Below are positions 10,121-63,896 of a stretch of DNA of 64,000 bases, piece after piece; within the stretch, counting starts at the first letter, position 1, and the number at the start of each line of letters is the position of its first letter. The translations under genes and the position numbers were made by a program. The DNA is taken from NCBI RefSeq assembly GCF_055900595.2, contig NZ_CM148325.1, one strand, 5' to 3'. The notes below the pieces were generated by a model. That model searched no databases. It was given only the letters and a program-made list of their open reading frames with translations, and had not been told where the DNA came from.

Positions 10121-10238
10121 TGTTCATGCCGGATGCGGCGTGAACGCCTTATCCGGCCTACAAGATCGTGCAAATTCAATATATTGCATGAGCCATGTAG
10201 GCCTGATAAGCGTAGAGCATCAGGCAGTTTTGCGTTTG
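10121..10238. repeat. REP/BIME (RIP-like) element: two inverted REP palindromes flanking an AT-rich spacer
   Basis: GCCGGATGCGGCGTGAACGCCTTATCCGGCCTACA ... GTAGGCCTGATAAGCGTAGAGCATCAGGCA; near-identical copy at 41201..41318. Confidence 0.85.
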
Positions 10239-11743: not shown

Positions 11744-14130
<2,387 letters not shown>

Positions 14131-15753: not shown

Positions 15754-16709
15754 TGAAGCAACTTTGGTTTGCCATGTCATTAGTGACAGGTAGCCTGTTA
15801 TTCTCTGCTAACGCCTCGGCCACTCCCGCGTCCGGGGCGTTATTACAGCAGATGAACCTGGCCAGTCAGTCACTGAATTACGAGCTGTCATTCATCAGCA
15901 TCAATAAACAGGGTGTTGAGTCTCTGCGTTATCGACATGCACGCCTCGATAACCGTCCTCTTGCACAATTGTTGCAAATGGATGGCCCGCGCCGGGAAGT
16001 GGTACAGCGCGGCAATGAAATCAGCTACTTTGAACCGGGCCTTGAACCGTTCACGCTTAATGGCGATTACATTGTTGATTCTCTGCCATCGCTCATCTAT
16101 ACCGATTTCAAACGCCTTTCTCCTTACTACGACTTTATCTCCGTGGGACGCACGCGTATTGCTGATCGTCTTTGCGAAGTCATTCGCGTGGTGGCCCGTG
16201 ATGGCACACGCTACAGCTACATCGTGTGGATGGACACCGAATCGAAATTACCGATGCGGGTTGATCTCCTTGATCGCGATGGTGAAACGCTGGAACAATT
16301 TCGCGTGATTGCTTTTAACGTTAATCAGGATATCAGCAGCAGTATGCAGACGCTGGCGAAAGCAAATCTGCCGCCGCTGCTTTCTGTTCCTGTAGGTGAA
16401 AAAGCTAAATTCAGCTGGACGCCAACCTGGTTGCCACAGGGGTTTAGTGAAGTTTCCAGCAGCCGACGTCCGTTACCGACGATGGACAACATGCCTATCG
16501 AATCACGTCTCTATTCCGACGGATTATTCAGCTTCTCGGTAAACGTTAACCGCGCTACGCCATCGAGCACCGATCAGATGTTGCGCACCGGACGCAGAAC
16601 CGTCAGTACAAGCGTACGTGATAACGCCGAAATCACCATTGTCGGCGAACTGCCGCCGCAAACGGCGAAACGCATTGCCGAGAATATTAAGTTCGGGGCA
16701 GCGCAATGA
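15753..16709 (+). CDS. rseB: SigmaE regulatory protein RseB (periplasmic)
   Basis: 318 aa with signal peptide; operon position. Confidence 0.95.
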   Translation: MKQLWFAMSLVTGSLLFSANASATPASGALLQQMNLASQSLNYELSFISINKQGVESLRYRHARLDNRPLAQLLQMDGPRREVVQRGNEISYFEPGLEPFTLNGDYIVDSLPSLIYTDFKRLSPYYDFISVGRTRIADRLCEVIRVVARDGTRYSYIVWMDTESKLPMRVDLLDRDGETLEQFRVIAFNVNQDISSSMQTLAKANLPPLLSVPVGEKAKFSWTPTWLPQGFSEVSSSRRPLPTMDNMPIESRLYSDGLFSFSVNVNRATPSSTDQMLRTGRRTVSTSVRDNAEITIVGELPPQTAKRIAENIKFGAAQ

Positions 16710-17185
16710 TCAAAGAGTGGGCTACGGTCGTCTCCTGGCAAAACGGGCAGGCGCTGGTCAGTTGTGATGTTAAAGCCTCATGCAGCAGCTGTGCTTCCCG
16801 TGTCGGTTGCGGTAGCCGCGTGCTGAATAAACTTGGCCCACAAACCACGCATACCATTGTCGTACCCTGTGATGAACCGTTAGTACCGGGGCAAAAAGTG
16901 GAATTAGGAATCACCGAAGGCAGCCTGCTTAGCTCCGCATTACTGGTTTATATGTCGCCGTTGGTGGGATTATTCCTCATCGCTTCGTTATTTCAGCTAC
17001 TCTTTGCTTCAGATCTTGCAGCATTATGCGGTGCGATTCTCGGCGGCGTTGGTGGATTCCTGATTGCACGCAGCTACTCGCGAAAGTTTGCTGCCCGGGC
17101 AGAATGGCAACCGATCATCTTAAGCGTGGCATTGCCGCCAGGCCTTGTGCGATTTGAAACATCTTCGGAAGACGCGAGCCAGTGA
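16706..17185 (+). CDS. rseC: SigmaE regulatory protein RseC
   Basis: 159 aa membrane protein; 4-bp overlap with rseB. Confidence 0.92.
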   Translation: MIKEWATVVSWQNGQALVSCDVKASCSSCASRVGCGSRVLNKLGPQTTHTIVVPCDEPLVPGQKVELGITEGSLLSSALLVYMSPLVGLFLIASLFQLLFASDLAALCGAILGGVGGFLIARSYSRKFAARAEWQPIILSVALPPGLVRFETSSEDASQ

Positions 17186-17382
17186 TTTCACTGGCTTTGT
17201 TGCATTTTGCATAACAAATGCGAGGACGTTTCCAGATACCACAATCCATACCGTATGAACATTTCCTCGCCTCAATGTTGTAGTGTAGAATGCGGCGTTT
17301 CTATTAATACAGACGTTAAGCTCAGAACAGCGACTTCTAAAAGCCTGGTTAACCGGGCATTAAGGCACAATAATCATACTTT

Positions 17383-19182
<1,800 letters not shown>

Positions 19183-20220: not shown

Positions 20221-20414
20221 ATTTATGAGATAAATCCCCCGTGGCTAACGACATCCCCCGTCGTTGTGTATAGAATATTCCCCCGAAGTTTAAGGTTGGC
20301 ACCTCCAGGTTGCCACGGCACACGAAACAGCGTTGGTCCCCATATACCGGTAAACTGAAACTGCAGCGAAGCAGTTAGCAGAGCCATGTATATCAGGTCT
20401 GTTTCGTGTGCTGA

Positions 20415-22027
<1,613 letters not shown>

Positions 22028-24010: not shown

Positions 24011-24033
24011 AATAATACCGTTCTCTTTAAAAA

Positions 24034-24070
24034 GTAAAACCCCCGAACTGGTAAGGAACGGGGGTTTTAC
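24034..24070. terminator. Rho-independent terminator after acpS
   Basis: Hairpin AAAACCCCCG-n-CGGGGGTTTT followed by T-rich tract. Confidence 0.75.
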
Positions 24071-24429
24071 TTTACAACTTTAATTTTGTGCAGCACACGA
24101 TTCCAACAAAAATGATTATGGATCAATTTAGTTATCCTGTACAAGCAACTTGCAATCTTTAGCATAAAAACTCGAGCCTTTACGAAGAAATCGATATTGA
24201 TGAAAAGATTAACGTGACCGCTTTTTGATAAGTACATTAGAATCGGCGTCGTTATTGGATATTTTGCTGTGTTCTACGCCATGCCACTGAATTCCCCCAT
24301 TGAAACGAGTGGTGTCGTCAAAGCTCTGGTGTGGAGTGCGGCACTCGATTCCAATAACTCGCACGTTCAGTTTTGGGGAGATGTAAGGGCTAATCTGAAC
24401 GGCTGCATTCCTTGTTTAAGGAAAAACGA

Positions 24430-27501: not shown

Positions 27502-29603
<2,102 letters not shown>

Positions 29604-34082: not shown

Positions 34083-34268
34083 AGTGGCTCATTCACCGAC
34101 TTATGTCAGCCCCTTCGGGACGTGCTACATAAAATTCGAATGACGCACAACAAGGTGCCTGCCGTCCAACTTCTGATATCAGCTTAGCTATATCAACCCT
34201 CGGGCGAAACGTCGAGTTAGGCACCGCCTTATTCCATAACAAAGCCGGGTTATTCCCGGCTTTGTTGT
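34083..34268 (+). ncRNA. glmY: Small RNA GlmY (controls GlmZ/glmS via RapZ)
   Basis: Sequence recognised (AGUGGCUCAUUCACCGACUUAUGUCAGCCCCUUCGGGAC...); ends in terminator AAAGCCGGG-n-CCCGGCUUUGUUGU; lies between purL and glrK. Confidence 0.85.
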
Positions 34269-52133: not shown

Positions 52134-52229
52134 AACCAATCCCTTTGCAAGATAATGTGATTTAAACGTAATACACACTCTGGTACCTCGCCACGCCCCA
52201 GGCGTTGAGATATTCGCTAATTATCCTGG

Positions 52230-53441
<1,212 letters not shown>

Positions 53442-54254
53442 TTAAAGATCCAGCCCAGCCGCTACGTGGCGAATGCCGCGAATCGCTAAACCCGCATCAG
53501 CGTTGATCATCACACCGCTTAATGCGCGATTATTGCGCCGCGATGCCAACATCACATACGGACCCGTAAAATCCGCCGGTTGCGGGAAAAATTGCAGCGG
53601 TAATATGGCGGCAATTTTCTCCGGCGTCAGAGACTGCATTATCGAGGTTTCACTTTGCCCGAGCGCCTGTGGGCCGCGTAGATCGCTGGCCATACCGCAT
53701 GGCCCAACGCCATTCACCCGTACTTTAGGTGCCAGTTCATAGGCCAGTTGGCGAATAAGTCCGGTTGCGGCATGTTTACTGGCGGTGTACAGCGGGCCAC
53801 CGCCGCCGGGATACCAGGCAGCATTGGACAGGGTGAAAATCATGCTGCCTTCACTGGCGATTAACGCCGGAGCGCAGGCTTTTGCGCCCAGCAGGTAACC
53901 GAGTACGTTGACGTTAAACAGCTCGTGGAAGCCGGTTTCGAGCGTCTCTGCGGGAGTATTAACCAGTGAGGCATTGTGATCCCAGATGCCCGCATTGCCG
54001 ATAAAACAATCCAGCTTGCCAGAACGAGTCAGGATCTGATCGACCGCGCGTTGATAATCGGCATAGCAGGTCACGTTACCTTCCACCGCCAGAATATGTT
54101 CGCCAAATCGCTGACGCAGACTGGCGACTTTTGCCGCCGACAGTTCCAGCGTGGCAACCTGCGCACCTTCTTCGATAAATCGCTCGACCAGTGCCAGTCC
54201 TAATCCCGATCCGCCACCAGTAATAAAGATGGACTCGTTATGCAGATCGCTCAT
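53442..54254 (-). CDS. hcaB: 2,3-dihydroxy-2,3-dihydrophenylpropionate dehydrogenase (SDR family)
   Basis: 270 aa; SDR motif [11 protein letters not shown] and YxxxK. Confidence 0.92.
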
Positions 54255-54570
54255 GGCTGCGCCTCCGGTAAGTCGATGAAGATATCACCACCTTCAACGT
54301 GTACTGGATAAGTGGTTAGCGGATCGGTGGCGGGCAGGCATAACGCTTTCCCCGTTTTCAGGCAAAAACTGGCGGCGTGCAGTGGGCACTCTACCGTAGC
54401 ATCATCTTCCAGATACCCTTCTGACATCGACGCATTACCATGACTGCAACGATCGTTAATGGCATAAAACTCGCCGCCAACGTTGAACAGGGCGATGACG
54501 GGCGAGGTATCGATCCGGAGAGCCTCACCCTCCGGCACATCCGCAACGGGACACGCATAAATTCGATTCA

Positions 54571-54571
<1 letters not shown>
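54251..54571 (-). CDS. hcaC: Rieske-type ferredoxin of 3-phenylpropionate dioxygenase
   Basis: 106 aa; Rieske motif CSHGN...CPLHAASF. Confidence 0.93.
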
Positions 54572-56483
<1,912 letters not shown>

Positions 56484-56582
56484 CTATTTTTGTGCCATAA
56501 GGATGTTGCTGGTTGGTTGCTGATATGTGAAATAGTTAATTTCTACCAACTGAGACGTTTTTTCGATAACAGGGGGAAGGTG

Positions 56583-57473
56583 ATGGAACTACGGCATTTA
56601 CGCTATTTCGTCGCAGTGGCGCAGGCACTGAACTTTACCCGTGCGGCGGAAAAACTGCATACCTCACAGCCTTCGTTAAGCAGCCAGATCCGCGATCTCG
56701 AAAACTGTGTTGGTGTTCCGCTACTGGTACGTGATAAACGTAAAGTCGCGTTGACGGCGGCGGGAGAATGTTTTCTCCAGGACGCGCAGGCAATCCTGGA
56801 ACAAGCGGAAAAGGCCAAACAACGAGCGCGGAAAATTGTTCAGGAAGATAAGCATTTAATCATCGGTTTCGTTCCATCGGCGGAAGTGAATTTACTGCCA
56901 AAAGTATTGCCCATGTTCCGACTGAAACAGCCAGAAACTTTGATCGAATTGGTGAGTTTAATTACCACGGAACAGGAAGAAAAAATTCGCCGTGGTGAAC
57001 TGGATGTCGGCTTAATGCGCCATCCTGTTTATAGCCCGGAGATTGATTATCTGGAACTTTTTGACGAACCATTAGTGGTGGTGTTGCCGGTTGATCATCC
57101 TTTAGCACAAGAAAAAGAGATCACCGCCGCGCAGCTGGATGGCGTGAATTTCGTTAGTACCGATCCGGCGTATTCCGGTTCGCTTGCGCCGATCGTTAAG
57201 GAGTGGTTTGCGCAAGAAAACAGCCAGCCGAATATCGTCCAGGTGGCAACCAATATTCTGGTAACGATGAATTTGGTGGGGATGGGGCTTGGCGTAACTT
57301 TGATACCCGGTTATATGAATAATTTTAATACCGGGCAGGTGGTATTTCGGCCAATTGCCGGAAATGTGCCTTCCATTGCCCTACTAATGGCGTGGAAGAA
57401 AGGCGAAATGAAACCGGCATTACGAGATTTCATCGCCATTGTGCAGGAACGTTTGGCAAGCGTAACGGCATAA
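56583..57473 (+). CDS. hcaR: LysR-family activator of the hca operon
   Basis: 296 aa from Met 56583 with strong SD (AGGGGGAAGG); LysR HTH; divergent from hcaE. Confidence 0.9.
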   Translation: MELRHLRYFVAVAQALNFTRAAEKLHTSQPSLSSQIRDLENCVGVPLLVRDKRKVALTAAGECFLQDAQAILEQAEKAKQRARKIVQEDKHLIIGFVPSAEVNLLPKVLPMFRLKQPETLIELVSLITTEQEEKIRRGELDVGLMRHPVYSPEIDYLELFDEPLVVVLPVDHPLAQEKEITAAQLDGVNFVSTDPAYSGSLAPIVKEWFAQENSQPNIVQVATNILVTMNLVGMGLGVTLIPGYMNNFNTGQVVFRPIAGNVPSIALLMAWKKGEMKPALRDFIAIVQERLASVTA

Positions 57474-57633
57474 ATACGCAATAATTTTGCAAGGTGCGTT
57501 GTGGGGCGCAGCTTTTTTAGTGCTTGCGAACAGGCGTTACAGACATCGGGAAGCAGGCTCGAATATTCTTATTTTTCAACTTGCACCAACATTCGATTAA
57601 CCCCAGACTAACGCCTCCTGACGGGAGGGACTC

Positions 57634-58773
57634 ATGGTTTTGCAATCCACGCGCTGGTTGGCGCTCGGTTATTTCACATACTTTTTTAGTTACGGCATTT
57701 TTCTACCTTTCTGGAGCGTCTGGCTTAAGGGGATTGGCTTAACGCCAGAAACTATCGGCCTGTTATTGGGGGCTGGTCTGGTTGCCCGTTTTCTCGGGAG
57801 TTTGATCATCGCGCCCCGCGTTAGCGATCCTTCCCGCCTGATTTCCGCCTTGCGCGTACTGGCACTGCTGACACTTCTCTTTGCTGTCGCCTTCTGGGCG
57901 GGGGCGCATGTAGCGTGGTTGATGGTGGTGATGATTGGCTTTAACCTCTTTTTCTCACCGCTGGTACCGTTGACCGATGCACTGGCGAATACATGGCAAA
58001 AACAGTTCCCGCTTGATTACGGCAAAGTGCGACTGTGGGGCTCGGTGGCGTTTGTCATTGGCTCGGCGCTGACAGGCAAACTGGTCAGTATGTTGGATTA
58101 TCGGGTGATCCTCGCGCTGTTGACGTTGGGCGTGGCGTCCATGCTGCTCGGATTTCTCATTCGTCCAACGATTCAGCCACAAGGGGCTAGCCGTCAGCAG
58201 GAGAGCACGGGAGGGCCAGCCTGGCTGACACTGGTCCGCCAGAACTGGCGCTTTCTGGCCTGCGTTTGTTTATTACAGGGAGCGCATGCAGCCTATTACG
58301 GTTTTAGCGCTATTTACTGGCAGGCAGCTGGGTATTCTGCTTCAGCGGTGGGCTATTTGTGGTCGCTGGGCGTGGTGGCAGAAGTCATTATTTTTGCGCT
58401 GAGTAATAAACTTTTCCGCCGTTGTAGTGCACGCGATATGCTGCTGATCTCGGCAATTAGCGGCGTAATGCGCTGGGGAATTATGGGAGCAACGACGGCG
58501 TTGCCGTGGTTGATAGTAGTGCAAATTCTGCATTGCGGCACCTTCACGGTCTGCCACCTGGCGGCCATGCGTTATATTGCCGCCCGCCAGGGTAGCGAAG
58601 TCATTCGTTTGCAGGCGGTTTACTCTGCCGTTGCAATGGGCGGTAGTATCGCCATCATGACCGTCTTCGCCGGTTTCCTGTATCAATATCTGGGCCACGG
58701 CGTGTTCTGGGTGATGGCGCTGGTGGCGCTTCCGGCAATGTTCTTGCGCCCGAAAGTTGTTCCCTCATGCTGA
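57634..58773 (+). CDS. hcaT: MFS transporter HcaT (putative 3-phenylpropionate transporter)
   Basis: 379 aa, 12-TM-type hydrophobic profile; synteny. Confidence 0.88.
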   Translation: MVLQSTRWLALGYFTYFFSYGIFLPFWSVWLKGIGLTPETIGLLLGAGLVARFLGSLIIAPRVSDPSRLISALRVLALLTLLFAVAFWAGAHVAWLMVVMIGFNLFFSPLVPLTDALANTWQKQFPLDYGKVRLWGSVAFVIGSALTGKLVSMLDYRVILALLTLGVASMLLGFLIRPTIQPQGASRQQESTGGPAWLTLVRQNWRFLACVCLLQGAHAAYYGFSAIYWQAAGYSASAVGYLWSLGVVAEVIIFALSNKLFRRCSARDMLLISAISGVMRWGIMGATTALPWLIVVQILHCGTFTVCHLAAMRYIAARQGSEVIRLQAVYSAVAMGGSIAIMTVFAGFLYQYLGHGVFWVMALVALPAMFLRPKVVPSC

Positions 58774-60045
58774 TTCGAGCATTTTGCGGATCTGCTCCTG
58801 TTGGTGTGTTGTCAGCGTCAGATCTGTGTAGATCAGCGGTGGTGAAAAGAGCGGTAACGGCGTGGTGTAAGGCGCAATAATCAGTGCCGCGCCGCGTGGA
58901 GCACCTCTCTGCAAAAATGCTTTTACCGACATATGCTTAATGTTGAGCGGCAGTAACGTTAGTTCACGTAACTGCTGCTCAATCTGCGCTTCACGCTCGC
59001 TATCATTCCCGGTCAGTAGAATAATCTGTTTTTCATGCAGGTCGTTTTCCTGCATTAGCCAGGCACCGAAAATCACCGCGACCAGACCGCTTTCCTCATC
59101 AGAAAGATGGACGCTGTATTCACTTTCAAATCCGGTCAGCGCCGCGCGGGTGGTGCGCACCAGGCGTGGGTACAGTCTGGAGAACTCTTCTGGCAGGGTG
59201 TTATCAATACCGATGGCAAACAAACTGCGATTTAACGCCTGGGCGAGGTGAGTATAAAGCTGATCTAATAACCCCTGTTCATCATAAAAACGAACATTTC
59301 CCAGCTCACGAAAATGGTTTACCAGACGTTTGATAGACTGACGCAATTGTCTATCCCGCTGATGCGCATCCCGAATTGGATCGGGAACTCGCAACATGGA
59401 AAAAAGTAATGCCATAAATAGTGGCTCATCAGGCGGTACAGGCTGGAGCGCCCGACGCTGCCAGTGGCGTCCAATTTCCTGCGCTACCTGAAATTCCAGG
59501 CAGGATTCTGCCCAGCGACGTTGGAGCGGATTAAACTGAGGCGTAATGCCAGCGTGGTGTTGCAGCAAGCAATATTGCAGATACAGACACAGGAAATGAA
59601 TATCGCGCGATTCAAAGCGTTTTTGTAGCCGTCGAGAGCAGAGATTCACTAACGCTTGTAGATTGGTATCGTCGTAAAAGTTACGCGAAATTCCGCGCCG
59701 CTTTAGTTCACTCTTCAGAGCAGGTGTGAATTGGCTGGTAATAAATGACGGACACAGACGGAAACCACGTCGTAGCCAATGAAATAAACACAAACGTTGG
59801 TTAAGCACTGTGCCTTCAACCCGGTAGCTACCGTCATAACCAGTAGTCAGTGTGAGTTGATGATAGCGCAGGATCTCCCGTCCTGTTTCGCTGATATCAA
59901 GACAGGCAATATCATCATCCACACCATTAAGCTCGCTGAAAGTTGCCGTGGTGGCGGTCAACCCCGGCTGAAAGAGTGTCAGCAAGATCTGGCAGCGGCG
60001 CTGGGGAGCCGAAAGGACAGATGGTGAAGCAAGCGTAGGCATCAT
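58765..60045 (-). CDS. csiE: Stationary-phase inducible protein CsiE
   Basis: 426 aa from second Met; synteny between hcaT and yfhR. Confidence 0.85.
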   Translation of the reverse strand: MMPTLASPSVLSAPQRRCQILLTLFQPGLTATTATFSELNGVDDDIACLDISETGREILRYHQLTLTTGYDGSYRVEGTVLNQRLCLFHWLRRGFRLCPSFITSQFTPALKSELKRRGISRNFYDDTNLQALVNLCSRRLQKRFESRDIHFLCLYLQYCLLQHHAGITPQFNPLQRRWAESCLEFQVAQEIGRHWQRRALQPVPPDEPLFMALLFSMLRVPDPIRDAHQRDRQLRQSIKRLVNHFRELGNVRFYDEQGLLDQLYTHLAQALNRSLFAIGIDNTLPEEFSRLYPRLVRTTRAALTGFESEYSVHLSDEESGLVAVIFGAWLMQENDLHEKQIILLTGNDSEREAQIEQQLRELTLLPLNIKHMSVKAFLQRGAPRGAALIIAPYTTPLPLFSPPLIYTDLTLTTHQQEQIRKMLESA

Positions 60046-60235
60046 CTGTAGATCTCCCATAAGCATAATTGATAAGAATAGCTAAAGTTTGCCCAGGGAA
60101 ATGGCGAAGGGAATGCTAATCATCAGAAATGTTGGCAAGCGTCACAGAATTTTTCTCATCTTAAACTGTTCTGACCAGTGGATTAGCTCGTCTAAAGGTG
60201 GATTTGTGAATGATTATCGCGCTAGCGATCATGGG

Positions 60236-61090
60236 TTAGTTGTGCGGATTCAACGTGCTAAGGATAAAATCCACTATTTGTTCGCGATAAACATCACCGT
60301 GACGATCGGAAAAAGCATCAATGTGTTCGCCGTCAGGGATTAAGATTAAACGTTTTGGCTCTTTTGCCAGATCATACAACTTTTGGCTGTGCTGCCATGG
60401 GATAACGTGATCGGCCTTACCGTGAATGAGTAAAACTGGGATCGGGCTGACGCTGGCGATGTAATTTTCGCCGCTGTAACTCTCATCAAGTAAGTAGCCA
60501 CTGCCGGGGATCATCTGGTTGGCAATGGTTGCATAAGAGGCAAATGTGGAGTCGAGGATCACTGCACGTATGCCCTCACGATCACCCTGACCAACAACAT
60601 CAAGAATATTCGCCCCGCCAATACTCTGCCCGAACAGTACCAGTCGTTGTGGGTTTACATCACTGCGATGGCGCACCACATTGATGGCACTTAGCGTATC
60701 GTCCAGCAATCCGGCCTGAGACGGCGTGCCTTTTGATTTACCAAACCCGCGATAATCAAACATAAAAACGTTGAAATTACGCTCAGGTAACCAACTGACC
60801 AGCGGCCAGTGGGCGGACATATTTCCGGCATTGCCGTGAGCATGAATGATGGTTGCGATGGCGTTGTCAGCGGGGCCTGTCGAAGAAGGGATAAACCAGC
60901 CTTGCAGACGAGTACCGTCCTTAGCTGTAAATTCGACGGATTCCGCCGACCAGGGGTCGGGACCGTAAATTTTGTCGTCGGGATAATAGAAGAAGTTGAT
61001 GGCAACGCGCGGCACTAAATAAACGCAGAAGGCAACAACAAAGAGAATAAACAGAATTTTGAGAACGCGTGTGTTCACTGGCAGTGCCAT
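60236..61090 (-). CDS. yfhR: Alpha/beta-hydrolase (S9 peptidase-like) membrane-anchored protein YfhR
   Basis: 284 aa from Met at 61090; N-terminal TM helix; nucleophile elbow GQSIGG. Confidence 0.85.
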   Translation of the reverse strand: MALPVNTRVLKILFILFVVAFCVYLVPRVAINFFYYPDDKIYGPDPWSAESVEFTAKDGTRLQGWFIPSSTGPADNAIATIIHAHGNAGNMSAHWPLVSWLPERNFNVFMFDYRGFGKSKGTPSQAGLLDDTLSAINVVRHRSDVNPQRLVLFGQSIGGANILDVVGQGDREGIRAVILDSTFASYATIANQMIPGSGYLLDESYSGENYIASVSPIPVLLIHGKADHVIPWQHSQKLYDLAKEPKRLILIPDGEHIDAFSDRHGDVYREQIVDFILSTLNPHN

Positions 61091-61234
61091 AACCTTTCCT
61101 TGCGACTTCTTTATCATCCATTAATCGGGGAAAGATGGTGGGAGAGTGACGAAAGAAAGTAAAGCAGAGCGGAAGCATTTCGGAATAGCGCCTGAAAGGC
61201 GAGGGCGGGTGAGAGAAATCACCCGCCAGAGAAA

Positions 61235-62038
61235 TTAACGCTTCAGGGCGTCGCTTAACTCGTCACGCATGTTCGCCAGCATGGCTTTAACAACGCGCGG
61301 GTTACCGGCAACGATGTTACCGGTCAGCATGTAGTTATGACCACCGTTGAAGTCGCTGACGATGCCGCCCGCTTCACGAACCAGCAGCTCACCTGCGGCG
61401 AAATCCCACGGACGCAGACCGATTTCAAAGAAACCGTCAACGCGACCCGCAGCAACGTAAGCCAGATCCAGCGCCGCAGAACCGGTACGACGGAAGTCTG
61501 CACATTCGTTGAACAGTTTGCCGACGATGTTGATGTAGGTGGTGGCGTACTGTTTTGCTTTGAACGGGAAGCCGGTCGCCAGAATAGTACCGTCGAGATC
61601 GCGAGCGGTGCTGCCGCGCAGACGGTAGCCGTTCAGCTGTGCGCCCTGACCGCGAGTCGCGGTGAACAGTTCGTTACGCATAGGATCATAAACCACAGCA
61701 ACTTCAGTGCGGCCTTTGATACGAACGGCAATAGATACCGCGAAGTGCGGCAGGCGTTTGATAAAGTTGGTAGTGCCATCCAGTGGATCGATAACCCATT
61801 GAACATCCTGATCGGTACCTTCAAGTTCACCGCTTTCTTCGGTGATGATGGTGTGCTGTGGGTAAGATTTACGAATCGTGTCGATAATCACCGCTTCGGC
61901 AGCTTTATCTACGTTGGTCACGAAATCGTTACTGCCTTTCTGGCTCGCTTCTACAGCGTCCGGGGTTTCATAGTTTTTGGCAATTAAATTACCCGCCTTG
62001 CGCGCTGCGCGCACGGCGATGTTCAGCATCGGATGCAT
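61235..62038 (-). CDS. suhB: Inositol monophosphatase SuhB
   Basis: 267 aa; IMPase motif WVIDPLDGTTNF. Confidence 0.96.
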   Translation of the reverse strand: MHPMLNIAVRAARKAGNLIAKNYETPDAVEASQKGSNDFVTNVDKAAEAVIIDTIRKSYPQHTIITEESGELEGTDQDVQWVIDPLDGTTNFIKRLPHFAVSIAVRIKGRTEVAVVYDPMRNELFTATRGQGAQLNGYRLRGSTARDLDGTILATGFPFKAKQYATTYINIVGKLFNECADFRRTGSAALDLAYVAAGRVDGFFEIGLRPWDFAAGELLVREAGGIVSDFNGGHNYMLTGNIVAGNPRVVKAMLANMRDELSDALKR

Positions 62039-62156
62039 CGGTCTCTCTCACTGGATGTTAAAGAACGGGAAAACGGCGCAGAGTATAGCAGCGAGATCGG
62101 CATCTGTCTTCGTTTTATGATAAGATGCGCAAATAATCTTTAGACGAAGAAAGACA

Positions 62157-62897
62157 ATGCTGCAAAATATTCGAATTGTGCTGGTGGAGACGTCACACAC
62201 CGGCAATATGGGTTCTGTTGCCCGTGCCATGAAAACAATGGGCTTAACCAATCTGTGGCTGGTTAATCCATTGGTGAAACCTGACTCCCAGGCGATTGCT
62301 CTGGCAGCAGGGGCCAACGATGTGATTGGTAATGCTCACATTGTCGATACGCTCGACGAAGCGTTAGCCGGTTGTAGCCTGGTGGTTGGCACCAGCGCAC
62401 GTTCCCGCACGCTGCCGTGGCCGATGCTCGACCCGCGTGAATGCGGTTTGAAAAGCGTCGCTGAAGCGGCAAATACGCCGGTGGCACTGGTTTTTGGTCG
62501 TGAGCGCGTTGGCTTGACCAATGAAGAGTTGCAAAAGTGCCATTATCATGTCGCCATTGCCGCTAATCCGGAATACAGTTCGCTGAACCTGGCGATGGCT
62601 GTTCAGGTTATTGCCTATGAAGTGCGCATGGCCTGGCTGGCGACTCAGGAGAACAGCGAGCAGGTTGAACATGACGAGACGCCGTATCCGCTGGTCGATG
62701 ATCTGGAACGTTTTTACGGTCATCTTGAACAAACGCTGCTGGCAACCGGCTTTATCCGTGAAAACCATCCGGGGCAGGTGATGAATAAGCTGCGTCGTCT
62801 GTTTACCCGTGCGCGCCCGGAAAGCCAGGAGTTGAATATCCTGCGCGGGATTCTGGCTTCTATTGAGCAGCAGAATAAAGGTAACAAGGCCGAATAA
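62157..62897 (+). CDS. trmJ: tRNA (cytidine/uridine-2'-O)-methyltransferase TrmJ (SpoU family)
   Basis: 246 aa; SPOUT fold N-terminal domain; synteny with iscR. Confidence 0.92.
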
Positions 62898-63029
62898 CCG
62901 AGGTTGCCTGATACGGCGCTTAACGCGTCTTGTCAGGCCTACATTGTACTGAACCCCTGGTCGGATAAAGTGTTTACGCCGCACCCGACAACAGGTACAA
63001 ACGCCACGATAAAAAAATGGCACTGAAGG

Positions 63030-63110
63030 TTAAATACCCGACTAAATCAGTCAAGTAAATAGTTGACCAATTTACTCGGGAATGTCAGACTTGACCCTGC
63101 TATGCAATAC
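63030..63110 (+). promoter_or_regulatory. iscR promoter region with IscR autoregulatory sites
   Basis: Sequence ATAAATACCCGACTAAATCAGTCAAGTAAATAGTTGACCAATTTACTCGGGAATGTCAGACTTGACC resembles the type-1 IscR sites and sigma70 -35/-10 of the isc promoter. Confidence 0.6.
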
Positions 63111-63166
63111 CCCCACTTTTACAATAAAAAACCCCGGGCAGGGGCGAGTTTGAGGTGAAGTAAGAC

Positions 63167-63655
63167 ATGAGACTGACATCTAAAGGGCGCTATGCCGTGA
63201 CCGCAATGCTTGACGTTGCGCTCAACTCTGAAGCGGGCCCGGTACCGTTGGCTGATATTTCCGAACGTCAGGGAATTTCCCTTTCTTATCTGGAACAACT
63301 GTTTTCCCGTCTGCGTAAAAATGGTCTGGTTTCCAGCGTACGCGGACCAGGCGGTGGTTATCTGTTAGGCAAAGATGCCAGCAGCATCGCCGTTGGCGAA
63401 GTGATTAGCGCCGTTGACGAATCTGTAGATGCCACCCGTTGTCAGGGTAAAGGCGGCTGCCAGGGGGGCGATAAATGCCTGACCCATGCGCTGTGGCGTG
63501 ATTTGAGCGACCGCCTCACCGGTTTTCTCAACAACATTACTTTAGGCGAACTGGTTAATAACCAGGAAGTGCTGGATGTATCTGGTCGTCAGCATACTCA
63601 CGACGCGCCACGCACCCGCACACAAGACGCGATCGACGTTAAGTTACGCGCTTAA
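63167..63655 (+). CDS. iscR: Fe-S cluster regulator IscR (Rrf2 family)
   Basis: 162 aa; Rrf2 HTH and three-Cys cluster ligand motif [16 protein letters not shown]. Confidence 0.97.
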
Positions 63656-63896
63656 TTTAACCGTCCTGTTTCGTGTTGCATCTGCGTTGACTGTACATAC
63701 TCACTCCGGTCACTTACTTATGTAAGCTCCCGGAGATTCGTAAGTTTGTCAACTTGCTGAAACCCGAAACAGTTAGGTTAAAGATAACAAGATATTAGAA
63801 TCAGGCCGGGGCGTCTCGCGCTCCGTAAACACGGTCGTACATCCAGCCGGTAGCCTGGTTCCTTGCATTGAGTGATGTACGGAGTTTATAGAGCAA

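Follow-up and report, generated by a model that had tools for sequence, protein, structure and literature searches.

The convergent genes hcaT and csiE share the last 9 bp of their coding sequences. We are confident that two real genes meet here tail to tail in an incidental and ancient junction without a spacer; a strong regulatory effect is disfavoured by the indirect evidence.

The shared coding sequence

In the analysed window, i.e., the whole stretch of 64,000 nucleotides, hcaT encodes an MFS transporter of 379 aa on the plus strand (57634-58773, TGA stop at 58771-58773). The stationary-phase inducible PRD-domain protein CsiE (426 aa) is encoded on the minus strand (58765-60045), with a TGA stop that reads TCA on the plus strand (58765-58767). 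The hcaT coordinates are supported by the ORF list, by RefSeq (the identical strain and K-12), by Pfam and by an exact CDS match; those of csiE by the ORF list, RefSeq and Pfam. TCATGCTGA at 58765-58773 is the exact 9 bp common to both coding sequences. This is in good agreement with the preliminary description, which had reported a 9-bp 3'-end overlap of the two genes on opposite strands. RefSeq gives the same overlap, and both CDS together with their shared 9 bp are annotated identically in E. coli Z0117EC0005 and K-12 MG1655. Window genes were located by exact match of the annotated CDS; the record-to-window alignment contains indels.

The overlap has the form TCA-NNN-TGA and the phase 123:321, i.e., codon position 1 of one gene faces codon position 3 of the other, which forces a Ser before both stops. 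On the plus strand hcaT ends with TCA-TGC-TGA (Ser-Cys-stop), while the reverse complement, TCA-GCA-TGA, ends csiE with Ser-Ala-stop. The TGA stop of hcaT is thus the penultimate Ser codon of csiE, and vice versa. The middle codon differs among species; in other species that carry the 9-bp form it is GGC or GAC in csiE direction. Only the outer TCA and TGA are fixed, since each of them serves one gene as its stop and the other as a Ser codon.

An overlap of this kind could in principle be an annotation artefact, with one of the two stops not representing the true protein end because of a sequencing error or a mis-called frame. This explanation is effectively refuted. HcaT matches the Pfam family MFS_1_like over its full length (E 5e-55) and CsiE matches PRD (E 3e-25); the Pfam domains are full length, and orthologues with 59-96% identity occur in 35 species. 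Both C-terminal motifs are kept up to the stop in approximately 12 genera, so that the shared bases and stops belong to real C-termini. The preliminary description had left room for a different true stop or start of either gene; both C-termini are backed by the orthologues in the 35 other species, and the only doubt in the annotation concerns the csiE start, placed at 60066 in the longest ORF and at 60045 by RefSeq, which has no bearing on the 3' end.

The 60 bases at the junction are identical in the window and in K-12, and a 70-bp probe across the junction reaches 95% identity or more in 5,424 out of 5,426 complete E. coli genomes. Over a 1-kb stretch spanning the overlap, identity amounts to 100% with E. 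coli Z0117EC0005 and to approximately 94.6% with K-12. The overlap has been annotated in E. coli for decades and is already known as such.

As a side observation, the identity between the window and K-12 is only about 92-97% along 9 kb (54300-63300), and at the csiE-hcaT locus an identity of at least 99% is reached in only 18 of the 5,424 complete 'E. coli' genomes. Together, these values indicate that the window derives from a divergent Escherichia lineage which is filed under E. coli.

Frequency and origin of convergent overlaps

The proper yardstick for the overlap is the frequency of convergent overlaps, not a chance expectation as applied to sequence motifs. Eleven convergent gene pairs are located in the 64-kb window, and four of them overlap at their 3' ends, each verified in the window sequence. 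Besides hcaT/csiE, these are trmN(+)/nadB(-) with 16 bp (12466-12481), tadA(+)/mltF(-) with 4 bp, TTAA (28047-28050), and kgtP(+)/yfiM(-), also with 4 bp, TTAA (58-61), where kgtP is truncated by the window start. All four pairs are present in the published E. coli excludome table (PMC12288877). For E. coli, the survey of Lillo and Krakauer 2007 gives a total of 58 convergent overlaps, and for 58 prokaryotes taken together a total of 1,890 (PMC2174442).

In the three other pairs, as in hcaT/csiE, real genes of opposite orientation have nothing in common but their stops and a few terminal codons. As a class, short convergent CDS overlaps originate from the loss or shift of a stop codon by mutation, followed by extension into the neighbour (Lillo and Krakauer, PMC2174442; PMC2716372). 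The commonest class comprises the 4-bp overlaps TTAA, CTAG, CTAA and TTAG, unlike the 9-bp hcaT/csiE overlap of the window. In kind, the hcaT-csiE overlap is ordinary.

Evolution of the junction in Enterobacteriaceae

A single scan of species-representative genomes having CsiE yielded 36 loci from approximately 12 enterobacterial genera. csiE and hcaT are arranged tail to tail in 35 of the 36 species found; among these 35, the genes overlap in 30, abut in two and are separated by a spacer in three. The overlap measures 14 bp in seven species (Buttiauxella), 9 bp in ten (Escherichia, the C. amalonaticus/sedlakii group, Pseudenterobacter, Intestinirhabdus), 6 bp in five (Salmonella arizonae, diarizonae and three Citrobacter sp.) and 4 bp in eight (Kosakonia, Leclercia, Silvania, Pseudescherichia, Cedecea colo, Enterobacter sp. 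R1 and one C. freundii record). The abutting cases (0 bp) are 'E. coli' E69 and Enterobacter soli. In the gene tree, overlap geometry tracks the clades, and the spaced and abutting cases are nested within overlapping clades, so that the spacer-less state is the ancestral one. What is kept across species is the closeness of csiE and hcaT, while overlap length and phase vary.

The spacers measure 38 bp (locus L025:5237-5274), 89 bp in Dryocola (L024:5237-5325) and 186 bp (L033:4152-4337), and all three represent strongly folding palindromic inserts (z -2.9, -5.6 and -3.3, respectively). Presumably they are similar to REP elements. They may be acquired bidirectional terminators or RNA stabilisers. 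No such palindrome is found at the junction of the window.

A different kind of exception is 'E. coli' E69 (CP089930.1, L006:3628-3633), which carries a 3-bp TAA insertion just ahead of the shared TCAGCATGA. CsiE thereby becomes two residues shorter and the 9-bp overlap turns into an exact abutment, with hcaT untouched. CsiE can thus do without its last two residues, and the gene pair without the overlap. The overlapped codons generally lie in variable tails, ...LES(A/G/D) in CsiE and ...RPKV followed by 3-5 variable residues in HcaT.

The incidental origin that we favour probably took the following course. The csiE-hcaT intergenic spacer would have been lost in an ancestor of the Enterobacteriaceae, after which small indels and point changes would have shifted both stops within C-terminal tails under little constraint, so that the overlap now measures 4, 6, 9 or 14 bp depending on the clade. 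Such a course corresponds to the origin by stop-codon mutation known for convergent overlaps in general. In Escherichia, this drift would have led to TCA-GCA-TGA (csiE direction), with each TGA doubling as the penultimate Ser codon of the other protein. A ratchet could keep the junction spacer-less, as most insertions would disrupt a gene once intergenic DNA is missing. Against an incidental origin speaks the zero or negative spacing in 32 out of 35 species from about 12 genera, a tight packing behind which selection is possible.

Two further records were noted in the course of the comparison. In Citrobacter amalonaticus AUH_CA_2023_1 (L038:5281-6416), hcaT is seemingly disrupted and appears as two tblastn segments (residues 1-217 and 263-378). 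In E. coli EC77 (NZ_CP196708.1), the match spans query bases 146-1001 only, and the gene is annotated merely as 'MFS transporter'. Occasional loss of hcaT is apparently tolerated.

Termination signals and constraint at the junction

An mRNA with the complete CDS of hcaT or csiE necessarily covers at least 9 nt of the other CDS. Moreover, there is no space for an intergenic terminator, and hence each transcript must end within the opposite gene. It is therefore relevant whether the coding ends themselves harbour a hidden bidirectional intrinsic terminator, such that both transcripts stop at or near the overlap with minimal antisense RNA. Bidirectional intrinsic terminators between convergent genes were reportedly described by Ju et al. 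2019, and they share with csiE-hcaT the situation of two converging units to be ended within a very short distance. A weak hairpin, AUGCU-GAUUCG-AGCAU followed by UUU (58767-58785, plus strand), is indeed located exactly at the hcaT stop; it has a 5-bp AUGCU/AGCAU stem and looks like a terminator. In addition, predictions of the TransTermHP type give 'overlapping terminators' in 146 of 165 E. coli excludons generally.

The structure analyses do not agree with this reading. The hairpin has a z-score of -0.77, with 37 of 200 shuffled sequences folding equally well, it is missed by the terminator scan, and it is not conserved. Within 57000-60500, the consensus scan yielded no intrinsic terminator downstream of either stop on the relevant strand: the closest minus-strand site below 58765 lies at 57135, no plus-strand site was found above 58773, and the sole terminator-like site near the junction is located within hcaT, upstream of its stop. 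Folding of the junction on both strands gave z-scores of -1.15 to +0.53 and thus no stable structure, and RNAalifold found no conserved pairs (0) at the junction in 16 species. No GC-rich hairpin with flanking A and U tracts was found at the converging 3' ends. Unlike bidirectional terminators, csiE-hcaT thus has neither intergenic space nor a GC-rich, A/U-flanked hairpin nor a conserved structure. Finally, the measured csiE 3' end in K-12 (see below) lies 57 nt farther on, at a site without hairpin or U-tract. On the scan, the folding z-scores and the RNAalifold result, we reject the hidden terminator as highly improbable.

Synonymous sites were evaluated as a further indication of constraint. 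The last 20 codons of hcaT show a synonymous-site conservation of 0.448 as compared to a mean of 0.479 (36 orthologues), i.e., no added constraint. For the last 20 codons of csiE (407-426, 58768-58827), four-fold-site conservation is 0.563, with a mean of 0.455 and an sd of 0.059 (about 36-37 orthologues). This is a mild excess within the top 3.7% of windows, which are themselves autocorrelated. It counts against the incidental reading and might reflect constraint on the hcaT 3' UTR or chance. The first 20 codons are the most conserved ones in both genes (csiE: 59986-60045), which is the usual pattern. An RNA element embedded in the junction was considered and rejected; with the hcaT end average and the csiE end only mildly high, the signal is too weak.

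Transcripts across the junction

All transcript data stem from K-12, to which the lineage of the window is approximately 95% identical. Term-seq by Adams et al. 2021 places a 3' end at MG1655 2666762(+), classified as 'primary' for csiE and 'antisense' to hcaT, and this end is present only in the LB OD600 2.0 sheet (PMC7815308). The corresponding 61-nt sequence equals L002:4409-4469(-) and aligns to 58708-58768 of the window. In K-12, the csiE transcript thus extends 57 nt beyond the csiE stop and is antisense to the final 66 nt of the hcaT coding sequence. The inferred csiE 3' UTR of the window (58708-58764, minus strand), whose end at 58708 is homologous to MG1655 2666762(+), is wholly antisense to the hcaT CDS. 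Occurrence at OD 2.0 only fits the control of csiE by sigma-S, as the csiE promoter is listed in sigma-S ChIP-seq data (PMC4447067).

The Term-seq list of the same study has no entry for an hcaT 3' end (PMC7815308), and neither csiE nor hcaT is mentioned in the SMRT-Cappable-seq supplements. In ExcludonFinder (NAR 2025), 165 convergent excludons recur in half or more of 58 MG1655 RNA-seq sets, and csiE-hcaT is one of them (PMC12288877). Overlapping transcripts of the two genes are thus documented for K-12 in two published sources, the Term-seq table and Table 1 of the ExcludonFinder study, i.e., the excludome list of 2025. The preliminary description had stated that transcription of either gene must read into the other. 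This holds by geometry for both genes and is confirmed by a measured end inside hcaT for csiE; the alternative it had named, that both transcripts end before the overlap, does not apply to csiE.

How the transcripts are terminated can be stated only with reservation. There is neither a hairpin nor a U-tract before the csiE 3' end (fold z -0.5), and with no canonical terminator in K-12, this end may result from Rho-dependent termination or from 3' exonucleolytic trimming. The hcaT transcript would end by the same route. The Rho-region table of Adams et al. contains no csiE or hcaT entry, and it was obtained at OD 0.5, when csiE is barely expressed. According to the C/G ratio, C-rich, G-poor stretches follow the csiE stop at a distance of about 220-420 nt and the hcaT stop at about 250-310 nt. 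As Rho-loading sites they were rejected as the mechanism, because they do not coincide with the csiE 3' end at +57. Head-on collision of RNA polymerases, which has been found to contribute to termination in E. coli, may also play a part at convergent ends (Wang et al., bioRxiv 10.1101/2022.10.23.513370). When both mRNAs are made, they would be complementary over at least about 66 nt.

Such complementarity raises the question of a functional convergent excludon, in which the junction is kept by selection and transcription of one gene lowers the other. This would work through polymerases colliding head-on, through RNase III cutting the duplex of the 3' ends, or through both; for instance, csiE induction in stationary phase would turn down hcaT. 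The preliminary description had likewise considered transcriptional interference or antisense effects between the two genes. Like the convergent excludons in the sense of Sesto et al. 2013 and of the ExcludonFinder list (PMC12288877), csiE and hcaT are opposite-strand neighbours with overlapping transcript 3' ends. The listing by ExcludonFinder, the csiE 3' end within hcaT in the OD 2.0 sample, the collisions mentioned above and the tight packing across species are compatible with this view. It is also known that over-expression of hcaT alters long-term stationary-phase survival. Furthermore, p19 capture by Huang et al. 2020 recovered RNase III-cut dsRNA on csiE (U00096.2 2663459-2664122; PMC7373196).

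The hallmark of an excludon is, however, mutually exclusive expression by interference or RNase III, and here the constant hcaT level and the position of the dsRNA give no pointer to the 3' overlap. The csiE dsRNA clusters correspond to the 5' half of the gene (window approximately 59384-60047) and lie beside three internal antisense start sites on the plus strand (about 59350, 59549 and 59927, mapped from K-12), away from the overlap, while hcaT is not represented among the p19 clusters listed (PMC7373196). As a rule, convergent overlaps yield much less p19-captured dsRNA than divergent ones. If csiE is under antisense control at all, this control would be located in the 5' half of the gene and not at the 9-bp overlap; no convincing sigma-70 motif was seen upstream of the antisense start at about 59350. 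The hcaT transcript is among the three most invariant ones of E. coli and was selected as a qPCR reference for different strains, temperatures and stages of growth (PMC3110127). The gene has its own promoter, in which -10 mutations raise its expression (PMC10249474).

The comparative data point in the same direction. Overlap length and phase differ between clades, the gene pair tolerates hairpin spacers of 38-186 bp as well as loss of the overlap through a 3-bp TAA insertion, and the hcaT 3' end shows no added synonymous constraint. A functional excludon is thus unlikely, and we retain the incidental overlap as the best explanation. Interference between csiE and hcaT is probably small, given that expression of both genes is low and that of hcaT remarkably steady.

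hcaT and the hca cluster

The preliminary description had addressed hcaT as an aromatic-catabolism transporter. Partial experimental support exists for HcaT as an importer of 3-phenylpropionate, so that this designation stands in part. Its other basis, the location beside the hca genes, is confined to the E. coli lineage: hcaR and hcaE flank hcaT only in the window, in K-12 and in one other Escherichia representative. The gene directly after hcaT is yphA in E. albertii, E. whittamii and 'E. coli' E69, and glyA-hmp comes after hcaT in the two Salmonella records and in Intestinirhabdus.

According to the alignment, the 256-bp yphA-hcaT spacer of the hca-less Escherichia is split in the window. 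The yphA-proximal part adjoins hcaD, the hcaT-proximal part of approximately 85 nt lies upstream of hcaT, and hcaR..hcaD (about 5.3 kb) are located between them. Judged from this arrangement, hcaR-hcaEFCBD looks like a block of about 5.3 kb that was inserted into the ancestral yphA-hcaT intergenic region. The split spacer, together with the hca-less relatives, indicates that the csiE-hcaT pair is older than the link of hcaT to phenylpropionate catabolism, and this makes a name based on the hca neighbourhood less compelling for hcaT. The hcaD..hcaR block covers approximately 52230-57550 of the window, with boundaries near 52229 and about 57550, as seen by comparison with loci L005-L007, L012, L013 and L021.

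One could go further and suggest that the junction is kept by selection as an antisense coupling between a stationary-phase PRD protein and an MFS transporter that predates hca, that the primary role of HcaT is not phenylpropionate catabolism, and that csiE induction tunes HcaT or the reverse. We consider this combination of assumptions quite improbable.

Practical consequences and further features of the window

The overlap as it stands carries little biological weight and opens no new question. It does matter for strain construction, where deletion or tagging of the 3' end of either gene touches the other gene. The original Keio csiE deletion is a case in point: its primer was misplaced and removes the hcaT 3' end including the last transmembrane helix, and correct as well as incorrect csiE mutants exist in the library (PMC9431181). 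csiE phenotypes from Keio screens may thus be hcaT effects. For hcaT as a widely used qPCR reference, antisense csiE read-through in stationary phase should be borne in mind if amplicon or cDNA priming is not strand-specific. The csiE-hcaT comparison may further serve as a small illustration of how convergent overlaps evolve, being ancient and spacer-less, with a drifting length and an hca cluster inserted later.

The Rfam scan of the whole window gave six matches, none of them within 57000-61000. At gathering score, these are AsrC, the antisense of rseC (16670-17501, minus strand), the rncO leader (20285-20499, plus strand), the sRNA GlmY (34083-34230, plus strand), the iscRS stability element (63785-63894, plus strand), OhsC, the antitoxin of shoB (24031-24107, minus strand), and the sRNA ES036 (10162-10204, plus strand). 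All six are expected for such an E. coli region.
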